Shown: in pieces, positions 1 through 28,113 of the stretch | Layout: every line of letters starts with the position of its first letter | How positions within the stretch are numbered: position 1 is the first letter of the stretch | Assembly (NCBI GenBank): GCA_031284165.1 | Contig: JAITAK010000052.1 | Location: 1 to 48,083, forward strand | Length of the DNA stretch: 48,083 nucleotides | Direction: 5' to 3' | Source of the DNA: Puniceicoccales bacterium | GTDB lineage: Bacteria; Verrucomicrobiota; Verrucomicrobiia; Opitutales; LL51 | Notes under the pieces: generated by a model | Told to the model about the DNA's origin: nothing | Databases searched by the model: none | The model's input: only the letters and a program-made list of their open reading frames with translations | Position numbers and translations under genes: made by a program

Positions 1-1
1 A

Positions 2-55
2 GAGGGCCGTGAAGAGGGCCGTGAGGAGGGCCGTGAGGAGGGCCGTGAGGAGGGT
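2..55 (+). repeat. 12-bp in-frame tandem repeat (gagggccgtgag, about 4.5 copies) encoding (EGRE)n
   Basis: Direct reading gives gag ggc cgt gaa / gag ggc cgt gag x3 / gag ggt. The repeat continues off the left edge of the window. Confidence 0.9.
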
Positions 56-313
56 CTCATCGAAGGCGAGAAGATAGGCCGCGAAGAAGGCGAAAAGATA
101 GGGCAATTAAAAGGGAAAATAGAAATGCTGATAAAGAATTTTCTCAAGGGTAGAGAAATTGATGGCGATGACATCGAAGGCATTGTGCCGTATACGTTAG
201 ATGATAGTTTTGTGTGCCAAGCTTGGGAGAGTTTGAATAACTCTAATAAAACAGAAGAGAAGTATAAAGATTTTCTCCAAGAGCTTAGAAATTGGAAGCT
301 AATGCAAAGCTAA
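2..313 (+). CDS. Partial CDS (N-terminus off-window): Glu/Gly/Arg-repeat C-terminal fragment, possibly the tail of an Rpn/YhgA-like PD-(D/E)XK transposase-like protein
   Basis: Frame 2 is open from nt 2 and runs into the listed 125..313 ORF. Translation is EGREEGREEGREEGREEGLIEGEKIGREEGEKIGQLKGKIEMLIKNFLKG... An E/G/K/R repeat followed by a short helical tail is what I recall from Rpn-family C-termini. No catalytic domain is visible, so the family call is weak. Confidence 0.35.
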   Translation, partial: EGREEGREEGREEGREEGLIEGEKIGREEGEKIGQLKGKIEMLIKNFLKGREIDGDDIEGIVPYTLDDSFVCQAWESLNNSNKTEEKYKDFLQELRNWKLMQS

Positions 314-380
314 ATAATTAAAGGAAAATATGAAAAACTAAGGATATGTCATAATATATGATATCTTAATTTAAGTGTTT

Positions 381-1559
381 TTATTTAATAAAATTAACGG
401 AAATATGTTCAGGAATTATCGCTTGATAATGGCCTGAGGAGCCGTTACCTTCATAGTAAATCGTGATCTTCTTCGCATTCATTATTCCTGAACTATATAT
501 GTCTTGTCGATGGCTCAGTTGTCCATAATTATTTCTTCTGATCCATTTGCAAACGATATCACATCTTATTTCTTTGGCTAAAAGTGCAGTTAGTGGAGTA
601 TCTAATTGTATAGTCCCTTTCTTAATTTTTTCACATAAATCGCTATAGGCGGTAACATGTTCCTCTTGCATTAATAAATCCAGCCCATAAAGTATACCAG
701 AATACTCGCCAGTTTTACTTTTGCTATTACTTGCCTGGATGTTGGTAATGCAATTTGCTAATTTTTTTAAAAGCTCTAAAACCTCTTTCTTGGTAATTTG
801 GATGGATGCCGCTCCTGCATTTTGGGCTTTTTCAGCAGTAAGTATTGCCCAGTAACCACATAGCCCATCCCCAGGAACGTTCTGTAATTTGTAACCATCG
901 GCAATAAAAGATATTTTTTTATTTTTTTCCGCTTCAATCTTAGGGATCGCCTTAGATGACAGTGCCGATGATAATGAAGGTGCGCTGCTATTATTTTGTA
1001 CTTTGAAATGGGTAGGCAACGACAACGGCTTAGTCGTGGCAAGCAACGGTTTCGATTTGTCTGTATTTTGTACGAATTTTTGCAATTTCTTGGGCTGTAA
1101 TTGTGTTACCGTTGAATGGGGTTGAACGGGTATAAATGGCTTAGCATTCCATAGTAATTTTTTGAAAGGCCTCTGTCGCCTCTGCTTTATCACTAAATGT
1201 TTTTGATTTTTCAATTGCCTTAACCGAGATTGTTGGGTTAATTTTGAGGGAGTAGTCATAAACTTAATGCCTTTGTCGTTGTGCTCTATTTTTTTTAGCA
1301 TTAATTGCCTCGTGCTTTTATTTTGTAATTTTTTTTGATATTGAGGTTGTTCAGTCGTTTTTTGTTTTTCTTTCTGACCATGTGACTTTTCTTGTTTTTG
1401 AGAGAATCTCGGTAGTAGCGGTAGCGTTTTGCGAGGATATCGCCAATGATTGTGTTGTGTTACATGAGATGTCACATCTTTATCGTCTCCAAATGAAACT
1501 GCCGTCAAAGAAGATAGCCACAAGATTGTAGTTAATGTTTTTGTATAATTTTTATTCAT
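381..1559 (-). CDS. Secreted OTU-like cysteine protease (candidate deubiquitinase/deubiquitinase-like effector)
   Basis: 392-aa ORF with ATG at 1559. The leader-like N-terminus MNKNYTKTLTTILWLSSLTAVSF is followed by a Lys/Gln-rich low-complexity region. The C-terminal ~175 aa carries the OTU-type D-G-x-C box (VPGDGLCGYWAILTA) and a terminal His box (SSGHYQAIIP). It is colinear with the paralogue at 1572..2360. Confidence 0.6.
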   Translation of the reverse strand: MNKNYTKTLTTILWLSSLTAVSFGDDKDVTSHVTQHNHWRYPRKTLPLLPRFSQKQEKSHGQKEKQKTTEQPQYQKKLQNKSTRQLMLKKIEHNDKGIKFMTTPSKLTQQSRLRQLKNQKHLVIKQRRQRPFKKLLWNAKPFIPVQPHSTVTQLQPKKLQKFVQNTDKSKPLLATTKPLSLPTHFKVQNNSSAPSLSSALSSKAIPKIEAEKNKKISFIADGYKLQNVPGDGLCGYWAILTAEKAQNAGAASIQITKKEVLELLKKLANCITNIQASNSKSKTGEYSGILYGLDLLMQEEHVTAYSDLCEKIKKGTIQLDTPLTALLAKEIRCDIVCKWIRRNNYGQLSHRQDIYSSGIMNAKKITIYYEGNGSSGHYQAIIPEHISVNFIK

Positions 1560-1571
1560 ATTGGTAATTTC

Positions 1572-2360
1572 CTAAATTTCAAATTTAACCTCAACGCCTT
1601 CGGGAGTAATTGCTTGATAATGTCCTCTAAATCCGTCGCCCGAATAATGAATCATGGCGACGGTTACTGGTCTTGTATGTTCGCTGTTTCCGCCATTTTG
1701 GCTGGGATCGGCGTGGAATGTACAGATAAAATTTCCTTGACTTTTACGTTTCGATCGCACGGAGATTGTACAATGGAGTACATCGGTTAAAAATGGAATC
1801 AGCGGAAAATCGAGCTGCATTTGCTTCGCTTTAATTTTCTTGTATAAATCATCATAGTTCTTCGCAAAACCTTCGCAGATGAGTTGATTAATTACATCCA
1901 TTCGATCAATCTCATCGATGCTTTTATTTTCCTTGTCGGCGGTATAAGCAATCCTATCCGCTAATTGCTTCAAAATTTCCAAAATTTCATTTTTACGAAT
2001 ACAGATAGTGGTTTTAGTTCTTTCCATTTCCTGGGCTTTTTTGGCCGTCAATACTGCCCAATAACCGCAACAGCCATCACTAGGAACATCTTTCAAGGCA
2101 TAGCCCTTTGGAATGATATCTCCTGTTTTTGTTTCAGACGTGTCGTCTAAAGGAAGCGTTTTATTTCGAGAAATAGTTATTTCTTGGATATCGGAATGGT
2201 TCGAGGAATGGCATACTTCTAGTTTCGTAGGCATTGCCATAAAAGCATCGCTACTACCGATGCCCACAATACCTATCCAATAAATACCTTTCCCCATCCA
2301 TTGACACATTGTAATCTTAATATAAAAAAAATAGTTATTATTGTCAATAAAATTTTGCAT
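1572..2360 (-). CDS. OTU-like cysteine protease, tandem paralogue
   Basis: 262-aa ORF. VPSDGCCGYWAVLTAKKAQ, YDDLYKKIKAKQMQLDFPL and FRGHYQAITPEGVEVKFEI align block-for-block with 381..1559. The ATG at 2358-2360 lies 1 nt after the mtaB stop (2362-2364), which suggests co-transcription. Confidence 0.6.
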   Translation of the reverse strand: MQNFIDNNNYFFYIKITMCQWMGKGIYWIGIVGIGSSDAFMAMPTKLEVCHSSNHSDIQEITISRNKTLPLDDTSETKTGDIIPKGYALKDVPSDGCCGYWAVLTAKKAQEMERTKTTICIRKNEILEILKQLADRIAYTADKENKSIDEIDRMDVINQLICEGFAKNYDDLYKKIKAKQMQLDFPLIPFLTDVLHCTISVRSKRKSQGNFICTFHADPSQNGGNSEHTRPVTVAMIHYSGDGFRGHYQAITPEGVEVKFEI

Positions 2361-2361
2361 C

Positions 2362-3717
2362 CTAGGGCGTAATCTTCATCGATTCTTCGATAAGTTCTCC
2401 TCGAATAAATGTGCCGCAATTTTGAATTAGACGCACTTTTCCTATCTGATTACTGAGATCCCTGGGGGCATTAAGGACTAAAACCTTGATGTAGTTTTCT
2501 GTAAATCCAGGGAAAGCCGATTTCTTTCTGTCCTCAAACAAAACGAGTTCCGTTTTCCCGATTTGCTGTTCGAAAAATTGGCAGCGTTTTTTCCAACTCA
2601 AATCTCGCAATACCTTACTGCGTCGATCGATTTCATTGCGAGTCACAAATTGCCCTTCTAGTAAATTTGCTGCGGTTCCTTCACGGCGAGCATAGGAAAA
2701 GACGTGAACGTATTGGAATGCCGTCTCTTGAATTAAATGTATAGAGCACTCGAAATCCTCATCACTTTCTCCGGGGAATCCCACGATAAGATCCGTTCCC
2801 AAACCGATATTGGGAATAGCTTTTGCAACGCTCTCGACATAATCTTCGGCTTCAGCGAGGGTATAATGACGTCTCATTGCCCGTAGGATACGATCGCTCC
2901 CTGATTGAATAGGCAGGTGAAGATATTTGACGAGTTTATGTTTAGGATCTGCCATTTGAGTTAAAATAGCGTCATCTATGGTCTTGAACTCGATGCTACT
3001 TAAGCGAATGCGTTGAAGTTCAGGAATTTCATTCAGTGTGGCAATGACGTCAGATAATTTTTTCCCACTGTTTCGATAGACCCCTATGTTGGTACCCGTT
3101 AAAACGATTTCTCTGACACCTTGCCGCACATGGATTTCCGCATCTTCGATCAGATTTTTAAAATCGCGGCTGCGGGCCCGTCCCCGCAATGTTGGAATGA
3201 TGCAGTAGGAACAAAAGAAATTGCAGCCTTCTTGAATTTTCAAATTATAGCGTTGACGATAAGGTCGATGCAAAAGGCAAGGGAATTCAAAATCAGATTT
3301 TACGATGGGATAACGCGAAATTTCTGTGAATTTTTTTCGCAAATCGAGCCTATCGATATGTTCAAAGATGCGATGTTTTTCGGAATTGCCGAGGATAAGG
3401 ATGCGATCATGTAAACCGAGAAGTTCTGACGGATTTTTTTCGGCGAGGCAACCCGTAATGACTAAAGCGACATGGGGCTGTGTGCGAACAATTTGTCGGA
3501 TAGTTTGTTTACACTTTGATTCAGCTTCCTGCGTAACAGCACAGGAATTAACGATCGCGACATCGATCGATCGGTCCATAACCTGAGCAACCTCGTAACC
3601 AGCAGCCTCGAGAGTTTCGATAAAAGTCCGCGATTCTGCCGCATTTAATCGACAACCATGCGTATGGACATACACTCTCACCTCATCGTATTTTCTAGCA
3701 AAAAATTGACAAAGCAA
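2362..3717 (-). CDS. mtaB: Radical-SAM methylthiotransferase, MtaB-like (tRNA t6A37 methylthiotransferase family)
   Basis: It has the N-terminal UPF0004-type VYVHTHGCRLNAAES, the radical-SAM box IQEGCNFFCSYCIIPTLRGRARSR and a C-terminal TRAM-like segment. The listed start is TTG at 3717. A GTG at 3681 (VRVYVHTHGC) is an alternative start. Confidence 0.75.
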   Translation of the reverse strand: MLCQFFARKYDEVRVYVHTHGCRLNAAESRTFIETLEAAGYEVAQVMDRSIDVAIVNSCAVTQEAESKCKQTIRQIVRTQPHVALVITGCLAEKNPSELLGLHDRILILGNSEKHRIFEHIDRLDLRKKFTEISRYPIVKSDFEFPCLLHRPYRQRYNLKIQEGCNFFCSYCIIPTLRGRARSRDFKNLIEDAEIHVRQGVREIVLTGTNIGVYRNSGKKLSDVIATLNEIPELQRIRLSSIEFKTIDDAILTQMADPKHKLVKYLHLPIQSGSDRILRAMRRHYTLAEAEDYVESVAKAIPNIGLGTDLIVGFPGESDEDFECSIHLIQETAFQYVHVFSYARREGTAANLLEGQFVTRNEIDRRSKVLRDLSWKKRCQFFEQQIGKTELVLFEDRKKSAFPGFTENYIKVLVLNAPRDLSNQIGKVRLIQNCGTFIRGELIEESMKITP

Positions 3718-3901
3718 GCCGGAATTTATGGGCCAAAGCGATTTACAAAAAAAATTCTGTATGAATTTTTAATTAAAATTCGTTCTTAAAATTTGATTTC
3801 TTGATTTCCTGTGCAGGTCTAGACGAAAGACACTAACTTAAACGCTTTAAAAGTTTTTGATCCCAGTGGACTTACAACTCAACGGCAGTAATTTTCCGTT
3901 T

Positions 3902-5377
3902 TTATCGGTATTGATTGACGACATCCACGTCATTGAAAGGAATTTTTTCGTCGCCAATTTGTTGATAAGTTTCATGGCCTTTTCCAGCAATGAGAACGAT
4001 ATCGTTTTCCTGTGCTTGAGTTAATGCTTGGTGGATTGCTTGTTGCCGATCCGTTTCGAAGATCACAGGAATGGAAATTTTCTCTTTCATCCCTGCACGC
4101 ATGTCATGGAAAATATCTTCCATTTTTTCGTGGCGCGGATTATCTGAAGTTGCGATCACCGCATCGGAAAATTGGCAGGCAACACTCATCATCGGCGCTC
4201 GCTTTGTCCTATCCCGATCACCACCACATCCAAAAACCGTAATGAGACGACTAGATCTTTCTTTTGATTTCAATATCTTAATTCGTCTTAAGCTTTCTAA
4301 AACACGAAACAAGCCATCCTCGGTGTGAGCATAGTCGACAAAAACTTGTACCCCGTGAGCGGTAGCGATTTTCTGTAATCGTCCAGGGACGCCAGGAAAA
4401 GTTGCTAATTTGGCTGCGATCTCTTTAAGGGTTAAATTGCCCATAGTATGCACTGCTGCAACCGCCGCTAATGCATTTTCTACATTGTGTACGCCAATGA
4501 TACCTAGATGACAATCATAACTTTCATCGCCATGATGTAAGCAAAATGTACTCCCCATTGTTGTACATCGCAAATCCGTTGCATAGTAATCGTTTTTAGG
4601 ATTTTCAAATGCGTAAGTTATTCCTCCGAATTCTGTATAAAGCCGCTGGCCATAATTGTCATTGCCATTCAACAGATTGAGTTTTGGTTTCGTTCCATTT
4701 TCACCGGAAAAAAGCTTCCGCTTCGCCAAAAAATAGGCTTCCTGATGACCATGATAATCCAAGTGGTCCGCCGTCAAATTGGAAAAAATACCTACATCGA
4801 CCTTTAACCCGTAGACGCGTTTCTGAGCTAAGGCGTGGGAACTCATTTCCAAAGCTACAGCGGCGTTTTGCGGTAAGTTGGCAAGCATAGTATACAACGC
4901 TATTCCATTGGGTGTCGTTTGCGACGAAGGTAAAACATTATCGATGAGATCGTAAGCAATCGTTCCGATGACCGCTGTAGGCCGATCAAGTAAGTGTCTT
5001 AATAAATAAGTTATCGTTGTTTTGCCATTGGTCCCCGTTACGGCAAACAGAAAAGGACGCTTGGACTCGCTCTGAAAAAACTGTCTCGCCGCCAATCCTA
5101 ACGCTTGACGGACATCATCGACAACGTAGATCGCTATGTTGATTCCCAGTTCTGCCAATTGATTTTCAGCTTCTTCCACCTCTTCGCGCTGGACTACGAT
5201 GCCCTTGGCTCCTTTCTTTATGGCTTCACTGATAAAATTCACACCCCGATGACGATTCCCGAACAACGCAAAAAATAAATGCCCCATCTCAACTTTTCGG
5301 CTGTCATCGGCTATGCCTGAAATCGCATCATTGGAAGTTATAGCTTCTAAAAACTCCCTATAATCATCACTTTTCAT
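3902..5377 (-). CDS. murE: UDP-N-acetylmuramoyl-L-alanyl-D-glutamate--2,6-diaminopimelate ligase
   Basis: Mur ligase P-loop VTGTNGKTTITY, the DNPR motif (TSDNPRHE) typical of meso-DAP-adding MurE, and a C-terminal GKGHE motif. Length is 491 aa. Confidence 0.9.
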   Translation of the reverse strand: MKSDDYREFLEAITSNDAISGIADDSRKVEMGHLFFALFGNRHRGVNFISEAIKKGAKGIVVQREEVEEAENQLAELGINIAIYVVDDVRQALGLAARQFFQSESKRPFLFAVTGTNGKTTITYLLRHLLDRPTAVIGTIAYDLIDNVLPSSQTTPNGIALYTMLANLPQNAAVALEMSSHALAQKRVYGLKVDVGIFSNLTADHLDYHGHQEAYFLAKRKLFSGENGTKPKLNLLNGNDNYGQRLYTEFGGITYAFENPKNDYYATDLRCTTMGSTFCLHHGDESYDCHLGIIGVHNVENALAAVAAVHTMGNLTLKEIAAKLATFPGVPGRLQKIATAHGVQVFVDYAHTEDGLFRVLESLRRIKILKSKERSSRLITVFGCGGDRDRTKRAPMMSVACQFSDAVIATSDNPRHEKMEDIFHDMRAGMKEKISIPVIFETDRQQAIHQALTQAQENDIVLIAGKGHETYQQIGDEKIPFNDVDVVNQYR

Positions 5378-5434
5378 GAATAGTATTTCAAAACTATAAC
5401 TTCCTTCCCTTTTCGTTCGTTACCCCGTTACCCA

Positions 5435-5457
5435 ACACGACGCGCCCAGCGCCGTGT
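5435..5457 (-). terminator. GC-rich hairpin downstream of the 740-aa gene (possible terminator or processing structure)
   Basis: acacg-ac-gcgc-cca-gcgc-cgtgt forms a 5+4 bp stem with a 2-nt bulge in otherwise AT-rich spacer. There is no clear T-tract on the minus strand, so this is not a canonical intrinsic terminator. Confidence 0.25.
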
Positions 5458-5483
5458 AGACGCTTTTACCTTCAAAATATGAC

Positions 5484-7706
5484 TTAGCCAAACGCCTTAT
5501 TTTCCGTCAAAATCTTTACCGGAATCAAAACTTGCCGTTCCACTTCGTTATAAATTGCGTTATTGTTAATGATGAACGAAGTTTTTATGGGTACCAAGGG
5601 GAGCGGTTTCGTTTCACCTGGTTTTGTAGAGAGCGTATTTTTATAGACCTTATTGGAACTTTGAGGTCTAGAAGTCCGTGAAATAAATTCTTTCTCTAGG
5701 GCTGTACCCAAGGATTGCAAGGTAAATAAAAATACGTTTGCCAATACATAATCAACAGACACATCTACCTGTAGGCGATCATTCTGCGCACTAACGACAC
5801 ATAACACCGGGTCTGCATTTTTCATTTGTGGTAAAAAGTTTTCAACCGCCTGTTTTATGACCTTTGTTTCTTCACTCGTCGCTGAATCAAGCGGCATTTC
5901 AGACAAAATCTGAGGGATAGCATCGCTAAAATTCCATTTTCCTTTCAAGATAACCCCCTGAGGGAGTCCTTCAAGGTATGACTTAGCGTTAACTATAGGT
6001 ATTTTTTTTGCGATGACGTTGTCGATCAAATATTTGAGATAATCCAAGGAATCCGACCCCAAAAATTGGCCATTAATTGCTGTTACATACTCCTCTAATA
6101 TTTGACCCTTTGCACCAGACAGCGCAGGTAATAGCGATACGGCAGTGTTACTTGCTGGAGTCGTCACATTATTAATCCCTTTAGCCCCTAGATTCGCTTC
6201 AGTATTACTGGCTGCTGGCATCGCTCCATTCGCAGGAACTGCGCTTTGACCCGTTGCGCCTCCGGTACCTGGAGTGACAGAGGATGTCTTTAAGTTTATG
6301 GAAAGGATATAAATTTTATGGCCTTGATATTCGCAAGACAACTGATAATTAGACTCTAAGGTGTGAAAACCTTCAACCTTCAGTGCTGCAGATAAATCAT
6401 TGCAAGTCTGCGTAACTAATTTACAATCTTCTAAATATTTCTCAAGCGTTTTTGTCCCTAAAACATGGCTCGAAAAAGAGACAACTTTATTTTGATAGGT
6501 TGTAAAAGCCCCCATATTAACTATCGATAAATGTTCACGGGTATTCGCCAATACTTTATCGATAATAGGAGTTAAATTTTTGTTGTCGTTGTCAGATCTC
6601 TTCGCCAAAGCGGGAATCATAGATTTCAAGATATCGCAAAGCAATATATCAATACGATTTACCACCATAACACCGCCGACATCCTTCATTTCAATATATT
6701 CGCTAATGCTTGCGGGTTCCTGATAGTTTTCAGCCTTCAAGTCAGCATAAAATGGCGAAGTAGCATCAAAAATGAAGCTAATGTAAACATCAAGCTTCGT
6801 CGAAGCGGTATTGTTAAGTTGTGGCTGTGCCGCCGCCGTCGGCTGGGTTACCGCTGCCTGTACTCCGTTGGGGCTTGGTTTTAACCCATTGCCATTAGGT
6901 CGTATAACAATTTTCCATCCTTGAATAGCGCAATAGGCACAGTGCTGCTGCAGCTGCGTTACTTGTAACCCTGACAAAAGGGGTTTCGACAGACTATCAA
7001 AAAACTTGGGCGTCAAATTAAACTCGATCGACCCTGCCGTTATGGGCTCCTTAGCCTGATCAACGAGTGTCTTTAGGAAATCTTTATCTTTGTTAAGAAG
7101 GTCTATCTTGGCTTTGTCGTTGGCCATAACGATATAACCCTCATGTTCAGTCCAATGAAAATTATCTATTTTGAGAGATTCCTTGGGTGCTTTTTCATCC
7201 ATTTGAAAAATGCAATAGGGAAAATAGTCGCGGTGATCCTCGAATATTAATACGGTAGCGTTGCTTCCTTCCTTGAGCGCACTGCCATCTTTTCCCCATT
7301 GCGGCCACATTGCCAATAATAGAAAATTTGCTTTTACATTATCTAGCCCCATCAGTCCTAGAAAATGAGGATTATTCAAAATCGATTTTATGTCTTTAAG
7401 CTTTATGGAAGCTATGGGCTTTTTATTAAAAACTTGAAGATCTTTTTCACCGTCAGACGTTAGGTTAGGTTTATCGGCGAAGCCCATTTCGCCTACGGAT
7501 ACGGATTTAAAAGTGGGCGTACCTGAAGGTGTATCTTGACTTTGGCCCTTCGTCAATTCCGCCAGGGCGGTATATTCGGCTTTCTTTGCTTCCCCTAAGG
7601 ACGCACCGACCAAACTTAGCGATCCCCAAATTAACATTCCACAAAAATAAATATTTTTCCACATAACGATATTTCTCCTACAATTAATTTTCTTATTCAT
7701 TTTCAT
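5484..7706 (-). CDS. Hypothetical secreted protein (740 aa)
   Basis: Long ORF with ATG at 7706. The hydrophobic leader is WKNIYFCGMLIWGSLSLVGASLGEA. There are two Ala/Thr/Gly/Pro/Asn low-complexity linkers (AAVTQPTAAAQPQLNNTAS; TPGTGGATGQSAVPANGAMPAASNTEANLGAKG). I recognise no family motif. Confidence 0.6.
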   Translation of the reverse strand: MKMNKKINCRRNIVMWKNIYFCGMLIWGSLSLVGASLGEAKKAEYTALAELTKGQSQDTPSGTPTFKSVSVGEMGFADKPNLTSDGEKDLQVFNKKPIASIKLKDIKSILNNPHFLGLMGLDNVKANFLLLAMWPQWGKDGSALKEGSNATVLIFEDHRDYFPYCIFQMDEKAPKESLKIDNFHWTEHEGYIVMANDKAKIDLLNKDKDFLKTLVDQAKEPITAGSIEFNLTPKFFDSLSKPLLSGLQVTQLQQHCAYCAIQGWKIVIRPNGNGLKPSPNGVQAAVTQPTAAAQPQLNNTASTKLDVYISFIFDATSPFYADLKAENYQEPASISEYIEMKDVGGVMVVNRIDILLCDILKSMIPALAKRSDNDNKNLTPIIDKVLANTREHLSIVNMGAFTTYQNKVVSFSSHVLGTKTLEKYLEDCKLVTQTCNDLSAALKVEGFHTLESNYQLSCEYQGHKIYILSINLKTSSVTPGTGGATGQSAVPANGAMPAASNTEANLGAKGINNVTTPASNTAVSLLPALSGAKGQILEEYVTAINGQFLGSDSLDYLKYLIDNVIAKKIPIVNAKSYLEGLPQGVILKGKWNFSDAIPQILSEMPLDSATSEETKVIKQAVENFLPQMKNADPVLCVVSAQNDRLQVDVSVDYVLANVFLFTLQSLGTALEKEFISRTSRPQSSNKVYKNTLSTKPGETKPLPLVPIKTSFIINNNAIYNEVERQVLIPVKILTENKAFG

Positions 7707-7908
7707 TTAAAATTCTGTGCACTTTCTACAAATTGGTTCTTTCATACAAAATTCGACACTCATGTAAAGCTTAAATTTCATCGAAAAATCCTAGATTTTG
7801 CATAAATTTTAACGAAAAACCTGTTGTAAGCCTCTTAGCAAAACCATATTGCAAAAAATTGCAAATAAAATTTTTAGTAAAACAGCATTATCCTCGCTTT
7901 GGCCGTCA

Positions 7909-9612
7909 TTACATGGCAATATTTTGGATCAGCGTCACAAGAGGAAGGAAGAGTCCAATCACGACAGAACCGACAAAACCTGCAAGAAATATCACCAATA
8001 CCGGTTCTATCATAGACGTTGTACGCGTAATAAGCTCGTCTAATTGCTCTTCGTAGGACAGAGCAACTCTATTCATCATTGCCCCGAGTTTTCCTGATTC
8101 TTCTCCTACCTTAATCAGTCCTTCAGCCATGACGGGAAATACATTGCGCCGACGCAAAGCCACCGTTAAAGACATGCCTTGTTGCACATCCCTAATGGTC
8201 AGGGCTAAGTTAGCTTTCATATAACAATTATTGATGCTTTCGCTAGCCATTTTCAGCGATTCAATGACGGAACAACCGCAGAGGAGGAGGTCCCCAAAGG
8301 TGCGAGAAAAAAGGACCACATCCCACTTCATTATACAATCTCCAAGTAGCGGTATTTTCAGGACGACGGCGTAAAACACTTTTTTAAGGAATGCGATTTT
8401 CTTAGCACCCAATATCACCAAAGGCATGATCAGCAAAGTTACCAATATTTCTTTGAGATGTGTCGTTACGAATCGGCTGCTGTCCAAAATGATCACGGTT
8501 AATGTTGGCATAACGTGAGCGCCAATTTGTTCAGCGATCACTTTTTCAAACCTGGGAACGACGAAAGTCGTTAGTAGCAAGATGACCATCGAAGAAACAG
8601 TGAAGACTGTGGCCGGATAAAGCATCGCCGAAATGATTTTTTTCTTAATGAAGATCTTTTTTTCCATCAAATTTGCCATTTTCGCCAATGTATTGGCTTG
8701 TTGTCCAACGGCTTCACCGGCGCGTACCATCGCAATTTCCGAGGTCTCAAACTTGACAACAGAAGACGTCAAAGCTTCAGAAAGAGAATTCCCTGCCTCG
8801 ATTTTTACGAATAAATCATGCAGGAAAAACCATGTATTTTCGTGACGTGCCTCTTGTTCTTTCAAAATAGCTAAGGAGGAACGAAGATCCATCCCCGCAT
8901 CTAAAAGTGCCGAAAGTTGGCGAATAATCTGTGCTTTCTTTTCAATTTTCAGTTTCAACGATCCTATAGCTTTCTTTTTTGCCGTTTTTCTCTCTGCAGT
9001 ACGCCGATATTTTCTCGATTGCTGTGGCGCAGAAGTATAAGGTGGCGCTTCATGAGCTTCCGGGTTCTTCATCGCGGCGTCTGTTGCTGCGTTTACCGCA
9101 GTATTTTCGCGATATTCCCGTAGTTGTTCCCCATCATAGCATATCTTGTGTCCATGCCTCTGCTGCCCTTGATTTACTGAGGTCATCGCTGAGGAATCTT
9201 TTTTATGTGTTATGTCCATGCCATCATCCAATACCGCCTGACTAAGCGTTAAAGGATCTGAGGAAAGCGATATTGCGCCCTCCTTAGCTTCAGTGTTGCA
9301 GTTGACGGTAGATATGTCTCTCGTGGAAGGGGCAGCCTCCAAAAGCCTAGAAGCGTCGTCTTTTAACGAGCAATCTGCGCTTTCCGAAAGCCCATCTCGA
9401 TGCGCTATCTCTTGAGCCCATGTGTTGGAGGAATCCGCAAAAGACCGGAAATGGGTCTTCCAAGGATGATCGTCTTGCAATGAATGTTCCGAGCATTCCC
9501 CGATCAATCCTTGTGTTTGCTCGTCTTTTCCCTGCATTTCATGGAAGAAGCTTTCCTGGTACCGATCAATTCTGTTCTGGAAAGCGTTTTTTAAAAACTG
9601 TCGAAATTTCAT
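7909..9612 (-). CDS. Type II secretion/type IV pilus platform protein, GspF/PilC family, with ~210-aa non-homologous N-terminal extension
   Basis: The C-terminal ~350 aa shows two T2SSF-like halves (QLSALLDAGMDLRSSLAILKEQ...; FGDLLLCGCSVIESLKMASES...GEESGKLGAMMNRVALSYEEQLDE) and three hydrophobic spans, ending ...GLFLPLVTLIQNI. The ATG at 9612 overlaps the upstream stop as ATGA. Confidence 0.75.
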   Translation of the reverse strand: MKFRQFLKNAFQNRIDRYQESFFHEMQGKDEQTQGLIGECSEHSLQDDHPWKTHFRSFADSSNTWAQEIAHRDGLSESADCSLKDDASRLLEAAPSTRDISTVNCNTEAKEGAISLSSDPLTLSQAVLDDGMDITHKKDSSAMTSVNQGQQRHGHKICYDGEQLREYRENTAVNAATDAAMKNPEAHEAPPYTSAPQQSRKYRRTAERKTAKKKAIGSLKLKIEKKAQIIRQLSALLDAGMDLRSSLAILKEQEARHENTWFFLHDLFVKIEAGNSLSEALTSSVVKFETSEIAMVRAGEAVGQQANTLAKMANLMEKKIFIKKKIISAMLYPATVFTVSSMVILLLTTFVVPRFEKVIAEQIGAHVMPTLTVIILDSSRFVTTHLKEILVTLLIMPLVILGAKKIAFLKKVFYAVVLKIPLLGDCIMKWDVVLFSRTFGDLLLCGCSVIESLKMASESINNCYMKANLALTIRDVQQGMSLTVALRRRNVFPVMAEGLIKVGEESGKLGAMMNRVALSYEEQLDELITRTTSMIEPVLVIFLAGFVGSVVIGLFLPLVTLIQNIAM

Positions 9613-10658
9613 GACATATTCCGCTTAAATTTGACCTTGCGTTTGGCGATGTTTTGGACGCTCTGTTTGACAGCGATATCGTCATTTTCGGCAATTTCGA
9701 TGCCAATAATATGTTCGAAAATGTCATCCAAAGTCAACACACCGACGATTTTATTTCCTTTCTTGACAAATGCAAGCTGCGTTAAGTTCTTTAGCAGAAC
9801 ATCGAGGGCATCGTCTACAAACATATCGTCGGAAAGAACCTTGGGAATCTCCATAATACGAGACAGTTGAATTTGGGCACCATTCGTGGCAAAAGCATGC
9901 AAAATTTTTCGGCGATGGACAATACCTACGAGATTTTCTGGATTGTTCGCATAAACAGGAATGCGACCCGTGGGAATGTTTTCATTATTAGCAATGAATA
10001 CGTCGCGAACGGTTGTATTCTTACTATAGGTGCTTAGATGATCCAGCGGAGTCATAATCTGAGCGATCACCGTGTAATCCATCTTCAGCGTATTTTCGAT
10101 CATCTTGCGTTCTTGATGGCTTAGTGTTCCATCGCGCACATTCTTTTCGGCAAGGAGCATGATCTCTCGATCAGAGTAGGCGGCATCGGCAGACTTTTTT
10201 CCTATAACCAGCCTTAAAATAAAACGGCAAATCTTGGAAAAGGGATACATCATTAAAACGACAAATTTGAGCAGATAAGCGGCAGGAATATACAATTTCT
10301 TCCGATAGATCAGACCGAGATTTTTAGGGAAAATTTCCGAAAATAACAAAATGATCACCGTTAGTCCCGTCGAAAAATAAACCAGCTTATCTTCACCGTA
10401 GATCTTGACGACCAGGCCTCCGGCGACAATGGCGCCAAAAGTATTGGAAAAAGTATTGAGCATGATGATTGCCGAGGAAGTTTCATCCATATTCTTTTTA
10501 CACTTTTCCATGGCGTGAGCAGCGCGTTTAGATTTGGAGCGAAGGTCTTCAAGTTCGATATCACTGGCACTGAAAAGGATCGCTTCGAGCAACGAAGCGA
10601 TTGTAGAGATACCTACCGTTAATGTTATGGTCAAAAGTAGGAGAAAAAAAGAACCCAT
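9609..10658 (-). CDS. CNNM/DUF21 transmembrane domain plus tandem CBS domains protein (TlyC/CorC hemolysin-family)
   Basis: MGSFFLLLLTITLTVGISTIASLLEAILFSASDIELEDL is a typical DUF21 start. Two CBS modules follow (IMTPLDHL...VGIVHRRKIL; IMEIPKVL...VGVLTLDDIFEHIIG). The ATG at 10658 is preferred. The longer ORF to 10820 would overlap the divergent ankyrin gene. No C-terminal CorC_HlyC domain is apparent. Confidence 0.75.
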   Translation of the reverse strand: MGSFFLLLLTITLTVGISTIASLLEAILFSASDIELEDLRSKSKRAAHAMEKCKKNMDETSSAIIMLNTFSNTFGAIVAGGLVVKIYGEDKLVYFSTGLTVIILLFSEIFPKNLGLIYRKKLYIPAAYLLKFVVLMMYPFSKICRFILRLVIGKKSADAAYSDREIMLLAEKNVRDGTLSHQERKMIENTLKMDYTVIAQIMTPLDHLSTYSKNTTVRDVFIANNENIPTGRIPVYANNPENLVGIVHRRKILHAFATNGAQIQLSRIMEIPKVLSDDMFVDDALDVLLKNLTQLAFVKKGNKIVGVLTLDDIFEHIIGIEIAENDDIAVKQSVQNIAKRKVKFKRNMS

Positions 10659-10803
10659 GGAACGATCTGACCATAATAGGGAACTGCAGCGGAGCGCAAT
10701 GAAATATATTGTAATTAAAATATTTATAAAAAAAATTGCTACTGATAAAAAATTTCGCAGAAATAATGAAATGCTTTCCGAGAAAATAAAAATTTTAAGA
10801 TTG

Positions 10804-12063
10804 ATGCGCTTTAGCGCCATCGCACTTCAGGTCATAGTCCATTGCCTTCAAGGAAGTTTAAATGCTTCATCATCAGCAGCGTCGGAAACGTTGAGCAAAT
10901 TTAACAGCAATCTTTATAAGGATACACCTTATTTAGACGCTGTCCGCCACGGCGATATACTCGAAATACAGCAATTTTTAAGCGATCCCTTACTGGATAT
11001 CAATCAGCAAAATAGTTCAGGAGAAACCGACTTAATGTTAGTGTTAGCGATGATCGCGATCTATGGACAATGTCGTGATAAAGGCCTGAAAAAAGCTCAA
11101 GATATTTTCAATTTATTAATGCAGCAACCCAAAAGGGATTGGAATTTACGCAACAACAACGGAGAAACTGCCCTCTGGCAGGCGACATCATTACGCCTTT
11201 GGGAATGCTTTAATGCCTTGTTACAGGTAGAAGCTGTAGACCCTAACATTCCCGATCAGAAAGGATTTACGCCCCTGACATTGCTCATAGAAATGAGGAA
11301 GGGGAGCCGCAATGATCCCGACAAAGCAAGTCTCTTGGAGATAATAAAATGTTTACTTCAATGTGAACGCGTCGATGTCAATCAAGAGGGAGATGGTGGA
11401 ATAACGCCATTAATTTTAGTCATTAAGTTGCAAGACGGGCTATTACTTTCCGCGTTTCTCGAATGTCGACGATTTTCCCTGGTTGCTTGTCAGAGCCATT
11501 CCTTACTTCAGCACCTTGGCAACCCACAGGGCTCACAGTTTCCCCGCAACACTTCACGTCTATTTCCATTGGAAGTGGCTTGGAAACAATATGCCTATTC
11601 TGATCGTCACTTCCTGCCTATATTCGATCTTATTTATCAGCGTATTTTGAGCGATGTTGATATGGAATTAATGCGCTACCTTAAACAAGTTAAGGAACGG
11701 TTATCGCAACTGAGCGATGTAAATTCGACAATTTGTGATGCACAAGACATACTTCAGACTATAGCAGCATTATACGAAACACCCGTAGTCATCAAATCTT
11801 ATGAATGCTGTAGCGATGATATACTTATCAAAGCTATCCGATATAAAATTAATTTCATTTCAAATCTGATTGAGGACAAAAATCTGCCACTCGTTTTGAC
11901 GATGAAGCGCATGTCTCAGCTAGGAAAGATCGTCACACAATTGGAGCAATTTTTGATATGTAGAAATCAACAAAATTTGGAATTGCTTAAAGATGCCTTG
12001 TATCAAGAACTTGACAATTATGAATATAAAGGTTATTTGAAAAAACAACTTAAAAAACTTTAA
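10804..12063 (+). CDS. Ankyrin-repeat protein
   Basis: ANK-like units are present: DAVRHGDILEIQQFLSDPLLDINQQNSSGETDLMLVL; NLRNNNGETALWQATSLRLWECFNALLQVEAVDPNIPDQKGFTPLTLLIE; DVNQEGDGGITPLILVIKLQDGLLLSAFLE. The listed TTG start at 10534 is antisense to the CNNM gene. In-frame ATGs at 10771 and 10804 are more plausible. MRFSAIALQVIVHCLQGSLNA is leader-like. Confidence 0.7.
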   Translation: MRFSAIALQVIVHCLQGSLNASSSAASETLSKFNSNLYKDTPYLDAVRHGDILEIQQFLSDPLLDINQQNSSGETDLMLVLAMIAIYGQCRDKGLKKAQDIFNLLMQQPKRDWNLRNNNGETALWQATSLRLWECFNALLQVEAVDPNIPDQKGFTPLTLLIEMRKGSRNDPDKASLLEIIKCLLQCERVDVNQEGDGGITPLILVIKLQDGLLLSAFLECRRFSLVACQSHSLLQHLGNPQGSQFPRNTSRLFPLEVAWKQYAYSDRHFLPIFDLIYQRILSDVDMELMRYLKQVKERLSQLSDVNSTICDAQDILQTIAALYETPVVIKSYECCSDDILIKAIRYKINFISNLIEDKNLPLVLTMKRMSQLGKIVTQLEQFLICRNQQNLELLKDALYQELDNYEYKGYLKKQLKKL

Positions 12064-12293
12064 GCCATATAAAATATAAGTCATTGAAAAATTAAACCGC
12101 CGGTAATGATCATTTTCAATAGCGGTATATCACCGATTTTAACGCCGCATTTTAGATAATTTTGATGCTTACATCCCCTGTTGACATAGAAAGTAAATAT
12201 TGAAAGTGAAAAATTTTTCCGTAAAAACAAAAAAATCTTGAAAATTAAACAATATTCATCATAACTTTTTTTATTCATTTGAAAGAGAAAATA

Positions 12294-13913
12294 ATGGCTA
12301 AAATAGTATTAAGAAAAATCGTCGGTGTTATATTACTCATGTATCCCTTAATTAGTCAGGGATGGAATGTGGTTATCGATGGTCGAGGGAATGTTTTAAC
12401 GGAAAATAGCGCAATTGATAAAGAAAAGGCGACTATTCTCATCCAGAATGGAGAATTTTCTGTCAGGTATGGACAATTTTGGCTTTATTGGCCTGACGTC
12501 ATTGGTGAGACCTATAATTTTAAGCAGTGTTATCTACCCGATGTGCCATTATTTGTGCCTGTCGATGGCGAGGAGTTCTATCAATACGTTCTTTCTAAGG
12601 AAGGGAACGTCAATAAAAGCAATGAAAGTTCATTAGGGAAAACGGAGAGCGAAATACTAAACCCCGATGGCGATGTCCTTTGTTGCCTTCAGTTGCTTAG
12701 AAACAAAAATGCGATGAAAGGTGAGAAAAAAAAGTTTATTGAACATGTCGTCTTTTACCGCTACAATACAGGCAACCGTTATTTTTTCCTCGCTCCCGCT
12801 GCAAAATTGCACAAACTTATTCAATTTGCCTTAGCGGGTGGTGCCAAAAGGGCTTTTAAACTTTATATCGGTATCGATGGAGAAGTGGATTCAAGTGAAG
12901 ATGCGAAAAATAAAATTACCAGCTTTCCTAACTGGTTTGCTCCGCGCAATTATTATATTAAAAATGACGGTAACGAATTTAATACGATGACCTTAAGGGA
13001 GAACGACGGTTTTGCACTCTCTGGGTTGGCAAGCCAAGGCTGGATCGGCTGGACGGGAAATGATACGGGATGGAAAGGAAAATATAGCCTCCCAGGAATT
13101 AATTTAGAAGATCAAAGCGTCGCCCATAAGGGAGAAAATCGGTCAATAACAACACAAGTACTTATAGGCGATGTGACACTACTAACGCACCACATCTTTT
13201 TAAATCAAGGTTCCATAGAAAAAATCCAAGAGGCATTATTTGGGAGCAATGATCGTCTCCCCGAAGGTCTAAAAGATTGCAATACTTCGAAATACGGCGA
13301 TTTGACTTCATTCGTCATAAAATTATTAGACGCCACTAGCGACGAAAATTCAAGAAAGTCTGTCTTAGGAAACGTTATAGAGCGGCTAGCGACAGAACTT
13401 GATGCTGAGACGAACCCTAGTCATGAATCGTCACAGTACGTCGTGAAAAAATTATCTGGAGAACAGGTGCCCTTCCGTACTTGGCTCGAAAATAAAAAAG
13501 CTGCTCAGAAAGAAGTTCCTCAAAGGAAAGTTCTTAAGGAAGAAACTCCTCAAAGGAAAGCGCCTAAGGAAGAAACTCCTCAAAGGAAAGTACTTAAGAA
13601 AGAAACTCCTCCAGGAAAAGCGCCTAAGAACAAAATTCCTCCGAATCCTCTGAAACAAATTCCCCAGGAAGAAAATTTTCAGAATAATCCGCTACCAGAC
13701 CTCTCTGACGAATACATCCAAAGCCATTTCAATAGCATTGCGAATGACATTGTCAAGAAATGTCGTACCGGAAGTATCAGCGCTGATGAAGCCGTCACTG
13801 AGCTGAAGCAACTCAAAGAACGTGGCATAAAATTGGGGATAATGGTTGTCAGAATTCAATCAGCTTTGTCGGAAGTAGAAAGGCATCGCATGTATCCTAA
13901 AAATTATAAATGA
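12294..13913 (+). CDS. Paralogous family member 1 (P1): unrecognised conserved N-domain, repeat linker and C-terminal helical module
   Basis: The first ATG is at 12294 (the listed 12279 is TTG) and is preceded by aagagaaaata. The hydrophobic leader ends in ISQGW. It shares the blocks ILIQNG, FWLY, YLPDVPLFVPV, DVLCCLQL, FYRY..NRYFFLAPAAKLH, GFALSGLASQGW, LPGINL, ITTQV and LLTHHIFLNQ with the ORFs at 14099, 22824 and 24891. Confidence 0.8.
   Translation: MAKIVLRKIVGVILLMYPLISQGWNVVIDGRGNVLTENSAIDKEKATILIQNGEFSVRYGQFWLYWPDVIGETYNFKQCYLPDVPLFVPVDGEEFYQYVLSKEGNVNKSNESSLGKTESEILNPDGDVLCCLQLLRNKNAMKGEKKKFIEHVVFYRYNTGNRYFFLAPAAKLHKLIQFALAGGAKRAFKLYIGIDGEVDSSEDAKNKITSFPNWFAPRNYYIKNDGNEFNTMTLRENDGFALSGLASQGWIGWTGNDTGWKGKYSLPGINLEDQSVAHKGENRSITTQVLIGDVTLLTHHIFLNQGSIEKIQEALFGSNDRLPEGLKDCNTSKYGDLTSFVIKLLDATSDENSRKSVLGNVIERLATELDAETNPSHESSQYVVKKLSGEQVPFRTWLENKKAAQKEVPQRKVLKEETPQRKAPKEETPQRKVLKKETPPGKAPKNKIPPNPLKQIPQEENFQNNPLPDLSDEYIQSHFNSIANDIVKKCRTGSISADEAVTELKQLKERGIKLGIMVVRIQSALSEVERHRMYPKNYK
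13509..13658 (+). repeat. 30-bp in-frame tandem repeat, 4 good plus 1 degenerate copies (KEVPQRKVLK/EETPQRKAPK...)
   Basis: The units are 13509-13538, 13539-13568, 13569-13598 and 13599-13628, with a degenerate unit at 13629-13658. The consensus is gaagaaactcctcaaaggaaagYRcYtaag. Confidence 0.9.
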
Positions 13914-14098
13914 TGACAGCATTAAAATTACGATTGATATGAACAAGGCTATGTTGCAGAACCGTAGCGATAAGCACCAATGTTTACCCATTCATTTGTA
14001 CTTATGAATTTCGATGAGACGCCGATATTTCTTAATAATGGGTTGTAAAGAAACGGGAGACTGTCGCAAACACTAAACAATTTGGAATGGAGAGGGAA

Positions 14099-16291: not shown

Positions 16292-16342
16292 CGAAAAAAC
16301 AATAAAACAATTAACATTAATTATTAAAATATGGAGATAAAA

Positions 16343-27630: not shown

Positions 27631-28113
27631 TTAATTTTTCCATGATCCATACTTCTTCTTTGTTGGAATCGTTTTTAAATCTTCATCACTGAGCATTTCA
27701 GCTTCAGTGCAAATTTCGTCAATACGCTTCATCCACGCATCGACTACATCAACAAATACAGCTAAATCGTCTTCGAAAGCATTCGAATCGGCCAAAGGAA
27801 GCAAAAACTTTTTCTGTAAGACTAGAGTCTGCGTTTGCTTATCAATGGCGAATGTCGCACCGTTGGAAACTTTCCAAAAAAAATTGGCTTCTAGAAGTAC
27901 TTCCAAAACGAGCTCTTTCCCCATAAATGGAACTACGCTAATATAGGAATATACAATTAATGCGCCTTCTTCTTCATTGAGCTCTAAATTAAGTACAATT
28001 TTATCATCAAATAGAATTAAACAATGATTATTGGAGTCTAAGGTCAATGACGATAAATCCAGGACTTTTGCAAGTTCCTGAAGTAGATGATTTACTTCGT
28101 TTTTATAATCCAT
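27631..28113 (-). CDS. Class I type III secretion chaperone (CesT/SycE-like fold family)
   Basis: 160 aa and acidic. The pattern LLQELAKVLDLSSLTLDSNNHCLILFDDKIVLNLELNEEEGALIVYSYISVVP...LEVLLEANFFWKVSNGATFAIDKQTQTLVLQKKFLLPLADSNAFEDDLAVFVDVVDAWMKRI matches the canonical layout of CesT/Tir-chaperone family proteins as I know it. That layout is: announce the target, 'alien' example, L-L-Y, LLeaNlf, GatlalD...l.L. Confidence 0.75.
   Translation of the reverse strand: MDYKNEVNHLLQELAKVLDLSSLTLDSNNHCLILFDDKIVLNLELNEEEGALIVYSYISVVPFMGKELVLEVLLEANFFWKVSNGATFAIDKQTQTLVLQKKFLLPLADSNAFEDDLAVFVDVVDAWMKRIDEICTEAEMLSDEDLKTIPTKKKYGSWKN

Follow-up and report, generated by a model that had tools for sequence, protein, structure and literature searches.

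A tandem pair of paralogous genes beside mtaB

A stretch of 48,083 nucleotides (nt) from a Puniceicoccales bacterium (contig JAITAK010000052.1 of assembly GCA_031284165.1), referred to here as the window, carries near its left end two adjacent genes on the reverse strand, ORF-A and ORF-B, whose products are predicted to end in a domain with the fold of OTU deubiquitinases. ORF-A (open reading frame A; 381..1559) encodes 392 amino acids in three parts: a Sec-type leader-like N-terminus at residues ~1-24, MNKNYTKTLTTILWLSSLTAVSFG, which by eye has the classical n/h/c-type layout and ends SFG|DD; a basic, low-complexity K/Q-rich linker of ~180 residues (~28-205; K 15.7%, Q 12.4%, pI 11.1); and the C-terminal OTU-fold domain at residues ~212-392 (384..926, reverse strand), which matches the hidden Markov model (HMM) of the family with an E value of 7.7e-67. 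ORF-B spans 1572..2360 on the same strand as the longest possible ORF (262 amino acids), and 1572..2309 as probably expressed, with 241 amino acids if translation begins at ATG 2297 or 245 if it begins at ATG 2309. Its layout comprises a hydrophobic N-terminal segment, MGKGIYWIGIVGIGSSDAFMAMP, a short linker, and the OTU-fold domain (1575..2153, reverse strand), which is also the sequence modelled below.

The first-pass annotation of this DNA described two ORFs with D-G-x-C and C-terminal GHYQAI motifs, and both are present as quoted, with the codons verified. ORF-A contains GDGLCGYWA with Cys234 (codon 858-860) and GHYQAI with His377 (codon 429-431), and ORF-B contains SDGCCGYWA with Cys98 (codon 2067-2069) and GHYQAI with His247 (codon 1620-1622), in the numbering of the longest ORF. 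The description of the two as a tandem pair is also borne out, as their paralogy lies well above chance (BLASTP, 33% identity over 222 amino acids, E value 7e-31), with the homology in the C-terminal ~190 residues. In a neighbour-joining tree, each copy forms a long branch close to the base of the main group, and the two are not closely related to each other; hence, either the duplication is old or both copies evolve fast. The N-termini were said to differ, with a long Lys/Gln-rich region and leader in one copy and a short N-terminus in the other. This is correct for the leader and linker of ORF-A, but the "short" N-terminus of ORF-B retains the hydrophobic segment typical of the family.

An orphan family with an invariant cysteine and histidine

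Searches of Pfam, NCBIfam, PADLOC, and PHROGs return nothing significant for ORF-A or ORF-B, and phmmer searches of both against the PDB yield only chance matches to antibody VH regions. A word-index homologue search finds just the query itself when started from a single sequence, and itself plus one further protein (P0032) when started from the family profile. The family becomes visible in an exhaustive HMMER search, in which a two-domain profile was run over 1.84 billion cluster representatives and identified 44 clusters at E values ≤1e-3, 24 of them at ≤1e-30. In most members, the C-terminal domain is preceded by a hydrophobic N-terminal segment and a linker that varies strongly and is often repetitive, and a few have two or three domains in tandem. 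Distant relatives with two or three tandem copies (P0020, P0034, P0035, and P0041) have Cys loops of the form GRCGYYA and His motifs of the form (D/N)HF(M/I/V)V(A/T)LP; the gene for one of them, P0035 (L013, 5001-7631), adjoins recJ, an HIT gene, a SurA-like gene, and secDF on a 23.5-kb JGI metagenome contig.

Conservation was counted over an alignment of 28 domains, in the numbering of the ORF-B domain. Seven residues are invariant (P24, C29, W32, G174, G177, H178, and Y179), and a further ten are at least 90% conserved (V23, D26, G27, G30, A37, Q113, I130, Y170, G172, and I182), giving the family core VPxDGxCGxWA ... MQLDSPL ... YYxGNGxxGHY. A single Cys and a single His are conserved without exception, as would be expected of an active cysteine hydrolase, and we consider it likely that the domain works as a hydrolase with a Cys/His active site.

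Predicted OTU fold

With only the two paralogues as input, AlphaFold2 gave an unusable model of the ORF-B domain, with a predicted local distance difference test score (pLDDT) of 42.7. With the 28-sequence family alignment, the predicted structure reached a pLDDT of 87.3 and a predicted template modelling score (pTM) of 0.84, rising to a pLDDT of 95-97 in the regions of the Cys and of the His. An insertion specific to ORF-B, at domain residues ~131-165, is poorly defined. In the model, C29 is the first residue of a helix (29-42) and H178 is the first residue of a strand (178-184).

A Foldseek search of this model against the PDB places OTU deubiquitinases in all 50 of the top 50 positions, 37 of them at E values ≤1e-3 and nearly all with a probability of 1.0 (minimum 0.96). 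The best match is the Wolbachia enzyme wMelOTU (6w9r, E value 6e-6), and others include nairovirus vOTU (3pt2), OTUD3 (4bou, TMt 0.68), OTUD5 (3tmp), OTUD1 (4bop), Otu1/Otu2, otubains, and Cezanne. A structure search of BFVD likewise returns mainly OTU-type viral proteins. A placement in another cysteine-protease clan, which the first-pass annotation had named as contrary evidence, does not occur among the top 50 PDB matches, all of which are OTU enzymes (clan CA, MEROPS C85-like). On the strength of this model, we regard it as very likely that the domain has an OTU fold.

Sequence profiles hint at the same enzymes, below significance. The family profile aligns to the Cys loop of EschOTU, VPGDGNCLYHAV, in the PDB at a sub-threshold E value of 0.16, and hhalign places the family GHYQ on the GHYD of OTUB1 (H265) weakly, with a probability of 2.4%; the human OTUB1 sequence used was checked against PDB 4ddg. 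In Pfam, PF02338 (OTU), PF10275 (Peptidase_C65, otubain), and PF05412 (arterivirus Nsp2 PLP2) are the sole protease families to appear below threshold, each for one of the 28 members and each at the Cys loop, with E values of 0.02-0.12 that are far from the gathering cut-offs. Peptidase_C65 is matched again by the second family copy of a related locus (E value 0.077).

Distribution and likely host

The distribution of the family was scanned with its Cys-loop pattern over one genome per species for 185,579 species. Ten loci were found (cited below by L numbers), all in metagenome-assembled genomes (MAGs) labelled "Puniceicoccales bacterium" or "uncultured Verrucomicrobia". As far as the sample codes in the supplement of Mies et al. 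go, nine of these 10 MAGs come from lower termites of the Kalotermitidae, namely Calcaritermes temnocephalus, Cryptotermes cavifrons, C. dudleyi, two Glyptotermes species, Incisitermes marginipennis, Neotermes castaneus, N. cubanus, and Procryptotermes leewardensis (Mies et al., 2024, PMC11257099). The window itself fits this picture: of the words sampled from the region, 96% occur in a public sequencing run labelled termite gut metagenome, and contigs from the same run span 1-4000 unbroken at a uniform depth of ~5-8.

In the same study's account of these lineages, the Opitutales families exclusive to lower termites are described as putative endosymbionts of flagellates, including the intranuclear Ca. 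Nucleococcus (PMC11257099; see also PMC8204192). The first-pass annotation had noted that bacterial OTU domains are known mainly from intracellular pathogens and symbionts such as Chlamydia and Legionella. That expectation of host association holds in spirit, but the organism is a termite-gut member of the Puniceicoccales (Verrucomicrobiota) and not a pathogen of the Chlamydia or Legionella type. In the library searched, no paper was found that brings together deubiquitinase, Verrucomicrobia, and OTU domain.

Conserved gene order and linked USP genes

The order murE-mtaB-family gene, all on one strand, is kept in eight of the 10 related loci; in L007 and L008, the family gene is not beside mtaB. 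A second family copy in tandem occurs only in the window and in L002, where it is very diverged and carries an insertion of GETEKT repeats (1741-2787).

The functional clue with the most weight comes from beyond the window, from genes of related genomes that encode ubiquitin-specific proteases (USP; PF00443). In L007, two USP genes (6590-8140 and 9740-11194; E values 1.4e-31 and 8.6e-18) come after the family gene (5527..6528), and in L008 three follow it (2535-4310, 4587-5561, and 6180-8492). L003 has a USP gene (6523-7914, E value 9e-25) directly after its mtaB-linked family gene. All of these genes score above the Pfam gathering threshold, with E values from 1e-31 to 3e-5, and their proteins have the canonical Cys box GLINFGATCYANSAIQ and His box GGHYIAY. 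Furthermore, they are built like the OTU-like family, in that a hydrophobic leader and a basic linker rich in K/R precede the catalytic domain at the C-terminus.

The place that follows the mtaB-linked gene thus acts like a slot with variable contents, occupied by a second family copy in the window and L002 and by a USP gene in L003. In L010, a different leader-bearing, OTU-looking protein with a textbook Cys loop, VPGDGNCFFWSV, is encoded ~1.4 kb downstream (7896-9116); it has no match among Pfam models, and phmmer against the PDB aligns it to OTU Cys loops at E values of 0.5-1.6. Further downstream in L009 (6742-8433) lies an orphan with a leader, a proline-rich part, and a coiled coil. It is possible, and we put it forward tentatively, that the clade carries an anciently fixed "effector slot" after mtaB that is filled by differing Sec-exported deubiquitinases: the OTU-fold family, the second OTU-like type, and USP. 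The clade would then consist of symbionts of lower-termite gut flagellates, and the enzymes, alike in layout, would leave the cell by the general secretory pathway and not by type III or IV secretion.

A bacterial origin of the substrate was also considered. Dedicated isopeptidases do exist in bacterial systems that conjugate ubiquitin-like proteins (Ubl), and the pair could be the peptidase of such a system, or of an anti-phage system of the Bil, Bub, or CBASS type. Nevertheless, no E1, E2, or Ubl gene is found near the pair or in the flanks of L001-L010, the neighbours of the pair are mtaB, murE, and a convergent repeat protein with no PADLOC match, and leaders followed by linkers are unlike a cytoplasmic defence enzyme. 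We consider this the least probable of the explanations weighed here.

Leaders and export

Many leaders of the family end in an AxA-like motif, and Sec-dependent export of the two proteins seems somewhat more probable than not. The conserved "MG..." N-termini were also inspected as possible sites of N-myristoylation or as lipoboxes, and both were rejected since the motifs do not fit. Many members among P0004-P0019 have, just after the leader, a short conserved motif (V/I)P(F/S/Y)W(K/R) that leads into a basic amphipathic stretch, as in SVPFWKLIVKKIQ. This motif is weak in ORF-A (residues ~40-48) and absent from ORF-B, and may serve as a membrane or surface attachment or as a secretion signal.

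A precedent for export of a deubiquitinase through a general pathway is TssM of Burkholderia, a substrate of type II secretion in which a hydrophobic N-terminal region precedes the catalytic domain (PMC10719079). It was, according to the 2023 paper, the only bacterial deubiquitinase of the USP type described, and it has been proposed to strip ubiquitin from the bacterial surface; the type II route is enough when the bacterium lies free in the host cytoplasm (PMC10719079). The window encodes a platform protein of the GspF/PilC type and a pseudopilin-like protein.

Start of ORF-B and relation to mtaB

Upstream of ORF-B lie a gene for an mtaB-type methylthiotransferase (2362..3717, reverse strand; UPF0004 and Radical_SAM domains), which adjoins ORF-B but stands outside the protease unit, and beyond it murE (3902..5377). 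ORF-B had been reported to start 1 nt after the mtaB stop, so that an effector-type gene appeared embedded in a housekeeping transcription unit. ATG 2360, 1 nt past that stop, is indeed the first ATG of the open frame; however, the reported start proves to be an artefact of taking the longest ORF. In the eight loci with the same gene order, the family protein begins "MG(L/M/I)..." and continues with a hydrophobic stretch ending "...AMP" or similar. These N-termini align with M22 of ORF-B (ATG 2297), or possibly M18 (ATG 2309), and ATG 2297 is also where an existing 241-residue gene call (P0001) begins. Since the orthologue N-termini set the start at 2309 or 2297, the spacer between mtaB and ORF-B measures 52-64 nt.

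A promoter-like element (2319..2347, reverse strand) precedes this start, consisting of TTGACA (2347-2342), 17 nt, and TATATT (2324-2319), with 11 of 12 positions matching the consensus. From the end of the -10 element it is 9 nt to ATG 2309 and 21 nt to ATG 2297, and either start may be in use. The orthologous spacers of L001-L006 and L009 contain a matching cTTGCt...TTATATT, conserved in position and in sequence between genomes whose MtaB proteins share just 56-66% identity; in these spacers, ~6 nt separate the end of the -10-like hexamer from the ATG. Such distances between the -10 element and the ATG suggest a leaderless or near-leaderless transcript. As a class, promoter-like matches are not enriched in the region (10 found against 10.9 expected), and the case for a dedicated promoter consequently rests on conservation and not on the scan. 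We judge it fairly likely that ORF-B and ORF-A have a promoter of their own. The 5′ extension of the longest ORF-B (2310..2360, reverse strand; MQNFIDNNNYFFYIKIT) overlaps the promoter-like element and, judged from the sequence, is probably not translated.

At the junction of the two genes (1560..1574, reverse strand), the ORF-B stop codon (TAG, 1574-1572) is separated by 12 nt from ORF-A, and a Shine-Dalgarno-like AGGA (1573-1570) lies 10 nt ahead of the ORF-A ATG. No terminator-like site was found at this junction or in the mtaB/ORF-B spacer. ORF-B and ORF-A probably form a single transcription unit under their own promoter and not within the mtaB message. Operon coupling would appear as a start abutting the mtaB stop with no promoter between them, which is not the arrangement found at ORF-B. 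What remains of the embedded-effector proposal is the adjacency to mtaB, which is real and kept in eight of 10 loci; the conserved sigma-70-like promoter of the pair argues against the rest.

If the proteins were instead cytoplasmic accessories of MtaB that act in tRNA modification, coupling to mtaB would be natural, and the conserved murE-mtaB-family order, the longest ORF beginning 1 nt past the mtaB stop, and the lack of a terminator-like site between the two genes would all fit. The downstream start does not, as the conserved -35/-10-like element would be overlapped by the longest ORF; nor do the hydrophobic leaders and disordered linkers, which are typical of exported proteins, or the family members of L007 and L008 that lie away from mtaB. 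The GC content at third codon positions (GC3) of ORF-A is 0.32, well under that of mtaB (0.40) and of the housekeeping neighbours (0.40-0.46) and similar to that of the giant orphan genes of the window. A role as an MtaB accessory is accordingly very unlikely.

The repeat-bearing fragment at the window edge

Just beyond ORF-A, positions 1-313 (forward strand) hold the 3′ end of a convergent gene that is cut by the window edge. It contains a 12-bp repeat in 4.4 copies, GAGGGCCGTGAG, that encodes EGRE units. The fragment at 2-313 had been called mobile-element-like, which finds no support from family searches: Pfam, NCBIfam, PADLOC, PHROGs, and a plasmid tblastn give no transposase or other family match. 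The sole sign of multiple copies is depth in the source metagenome, which reaches ~84 over 1-134 and ~19 over 135-268 as opposed to ~7 for the neighbours, with alternative flanks; on these two grounds, the sequence 1-268 is taken to be multi-copy. It may resemble the C-termini of Rpn/YhgA-type nuclease-transposase proteins.

This neighbourhood raises the question of whether the pair is recently acquired cargo of a mobile element. The low GC content of ORF-A (0.36, against 0.43-0.47 in housekeeping neighbours) would agree with recent arrival, as would an adjacent sequence (1-268) that is ~3-10 times deeper than its surroundings, flanked in alternative ways, and multi-copy. Yet the mtaB-linked position is kept across MAGs with MtaB proteins as distant as noted above, which points to old vertical inheritance; neither the fragment nor the ORFs match a transposase, integrase, or phage family, and there is no tRNA nearby. 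Recent acquisition is therefore improbable, although marginally less so than the accessory role in tRNA modification.

Proposed function

We favour, with some confidence, the view that the two proteins are isopeptidases that act on ubiquitin or Ubl and are exported by a protist-associated symbiont. ORF-B and ORF-A would be transcribed from their own conserved promoter just downstream of mtaB, and the invariant Cys (VPxDGxCGYWA) and His-Tyr (GxGxxGHY) of their products would form a thiolate-imidazolium pair. Sec would take the proteins across the inner membrane, after which they would be released or displayed on the cell surface, perhaps with assistance from the GspF/pseudopilin-type machinery of the window. 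The owner would be a termite-gut member of the Puniceicoccales from a clade described as putative gut-flagellate endosymbionts. Outside the bacterial cell, the enzymes may cleave ubiquitin or Ubl conjugates that the eukaryotic host forms on its own proteins or on the symbiont surface, and thereby blunt ubiquitin-dependent recognition or clearance. The differing linkers, long and basic in one protein and short in the other, could alter localisation or substrate reach.

Several observations weigh against this proposal. At the level of the domain, the best structural matches are moderate (TM scores of 0.5-0.68 over 165-180 aligned columns). The PF02338 comparison that the first-pass annotation had proposed as a check gives no significant result: neither ORF-A nor ORF-B matches the model at an E value ≤1, the best value in the family is 0.02 for one of 28 members, and distant members and orthologues give none. 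The usual OTU triad is C...H-aromatic-D/N/E (Schubert et al., 2020, PMC7396840). In most members of this family, Gln occupies the second position after the His (His+2); the rest have R, K, W, G, or L, so that the canonical D/N/E is missing. In the A20-type alternative, the third residue lies upstream of the Cys; over the 28 domains, no other acidic residue is invariant except D26 of the Cys loop itself. Candidates for orienting the His are the conserved Gln of the MQLD motif and the Gln at His+2. At the level of export, the leaders of ORF-B and its orthologues are weakly hydrophobic and rich in G, C, and Y, and a crude hydropathy window does not separate the family from cytoplasmic controls. 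At the level of context, the window was found to contain no USP or other ubiquitin-related gene, and the lifestyle of this organism is drawn from relatives and the literature; that these MAGs belong to the putative-endosymbiont families is something we infer. The original designation as OTU-like cysteine proteases can thus be kept for the predicted fold (pLDDT 87.3), the C...H order, the D-G-x-C loop whose Cys opens a helix, and the His-aromatic that opens a strand, but not for the third, acidic or Asn, residue of the triad or for a significant PF02338 match.

The main rival explanation is an OTU-fold hydrolase that acts on something other than ubiquitin, such as an enzyme for the maturation of envelope or secreted proteins or for the hydrolysis of a peptidoglycan-type amide or another acyl or ester bond, in which case the likeness to OTU enzymes would reflect a shared papain-like scaffold. 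Several of the observations above would speak for it: the acidic triad residue is missing, Trp takes the place of the usual Arg/His after the Cys, and no OTU sequence model is significant. A Sec-type leader also delivers its protein first to the periplasm, where there is no ubiquitin, and cell-wall genes such as murE are among the neighbours. However, the top structural matches are all OTU deubiquitinases and not NlpC/P60, CHAP, C39, or other bacterial papain-like enzymes. In three related genomes, family genes adjoin canonical USP genes of identical architecture, and in the distribution scan the family is confined to termite-gut MAGs of Puniceicoccales and Verrucomicrobia and is not seen in free-living relatives. 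We thus assign a non-ubiquitin substrate a minor but appreciable chance, and consider ubiquitin or Ubl a reasonably likely substrate of the pair.

Comparison with known deubiquitinases

Known bacterial OTU deubiquitinase effectors include wMelOTU/wPipOTU of Wolbachia, RickOTU, BurkOTU, EschOTU, ceg7/ceg23 of Legionella, and ChlaOTU (PMC7396840). The family resembles them in its predicted OTU fold, in the order C...H-aromatic, in its probably eukaryote-associated carriers, and in its strong divergence from eukaryotic OTUs, and its D-G-x-C Cys loop is very similar to that of EschOTU quoted above. It differs in being invisible to PF02338 and in having Gln or a variable residue at His+2 rather than D/N/E. 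Furthermore, while the known effectors are predicted substrates of type III or IV secretion systems (PMC7396840), the family features an apparent Sec-type hydrophobic leader and a disordered linker. Verrucomicrobiota receive no mention in that survey (PMC7396840), and the place of the family beside mtaB is fixed across the clade.

With OTUD1, OTUD3, OTUD5, Otu2, and the vOTU of CCHFV, the family shares a compact domain of ~150-190 residues in which the Cys lies at a helix start and the His at a strand start. It is set apart from these eukaryotic and viral enzymes by an identity of 10-16%, by the insertion at ~131-165 in ORF-B, by the lack of an acidic residue at His+2, and by Trp in place of Arg/His three residues after the Cys. 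TssM offers a functional analogy, in that a hydrophobic N-terminus and a spacer precede a C-terminal deubiquitinase domain and export uses a general pathway and not type III, IV, or VI secretion; for this route to reach the host cytoplasm, the bacterium must lie outside a vacuole. Unlike TssM, the family has the OTU and not the USP fold and a basic low-complexity linker in place of an Ig-like spacer, and its export is putative.

The bacterial OTU deubiquitinases known so far come from a small number of pathogens and insect symbionts, for all of which specialised injection systems are the predicted route. The present family would extend them to the Verrucomicrobiota and to termite-gut protist symbiosis, with a subfamily that sequence models do not see, a general-secretion layout, and no acidic His+2. 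If the tentative reading of an effector slot also holds, bacteria lying naked in the cytoplasm or nucleus of a protist would use a Sec-exported set of deubiquitinases to strip host ubiquitin off their own surface, or off host or nuclear targets, and an OTU family would work with a Cys-His pair that lacks the canonical acidic residue. Together with the USP genes of sister genomes, the pair suggests that this symbiont clade manipulates host ubiquitin as a core trait passed on by vertical inheritance. The family would then provide a handle on how endosymbionts persist in protists that cannot be cultured, and its alignment can seed the annotation of family genes, at present all labelled hypothetical.

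Other features of the window

Five large ORFs (544, 734, 2120, 603, and 753 amino acids) fill 12279-27113 on the forward strand and have no Pfam match. They are low in GC (0.36 for the 2120-residue ORF) with a strongly positive AT skew, and a PDB sequence search with three of the five returned nothing; they are candidates for lineage-specific secreted or host-interaction proteins. An ankyrin-repeat protein is encoded at 10534-12063 (forward strand), and a CesT-family protein, which is type III secretion chaperone-like, at 27631-28113 (reverse strand) between two orphan ORFs. Both kinds of gene are typical of host-associated bacteria, and no type III apparatus gene was seen in the window.

A 714-residue ORF at 33094-35238 (reverse strand) fuses MurC-type Mur ligase domains to MurB (FAD_binding_4 and MurB_C). 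Such a MurC-MurB fusion is characteristic of Verrucomicrobia and occurs in Verrucomicrobium, and in this respect the window fits the Verrucomicrobiota. An assignment to Chlamydiota, which the CesT and ankyrin genes, the giant orphans, and the mur genes had suggested, was rejected on account of this fusion and of the genome scan, in which all loci belonged to Puniceicoccales or Verrucomicrobia. Between murE and the GspF-type gene, a leader-bearing orphan of 740 amino acids (5484-7706, reverse strand) is weakly conserved, with 24% identity over 682 amino acids to the protein that occupies the corresponding place upstream of murE in L009.

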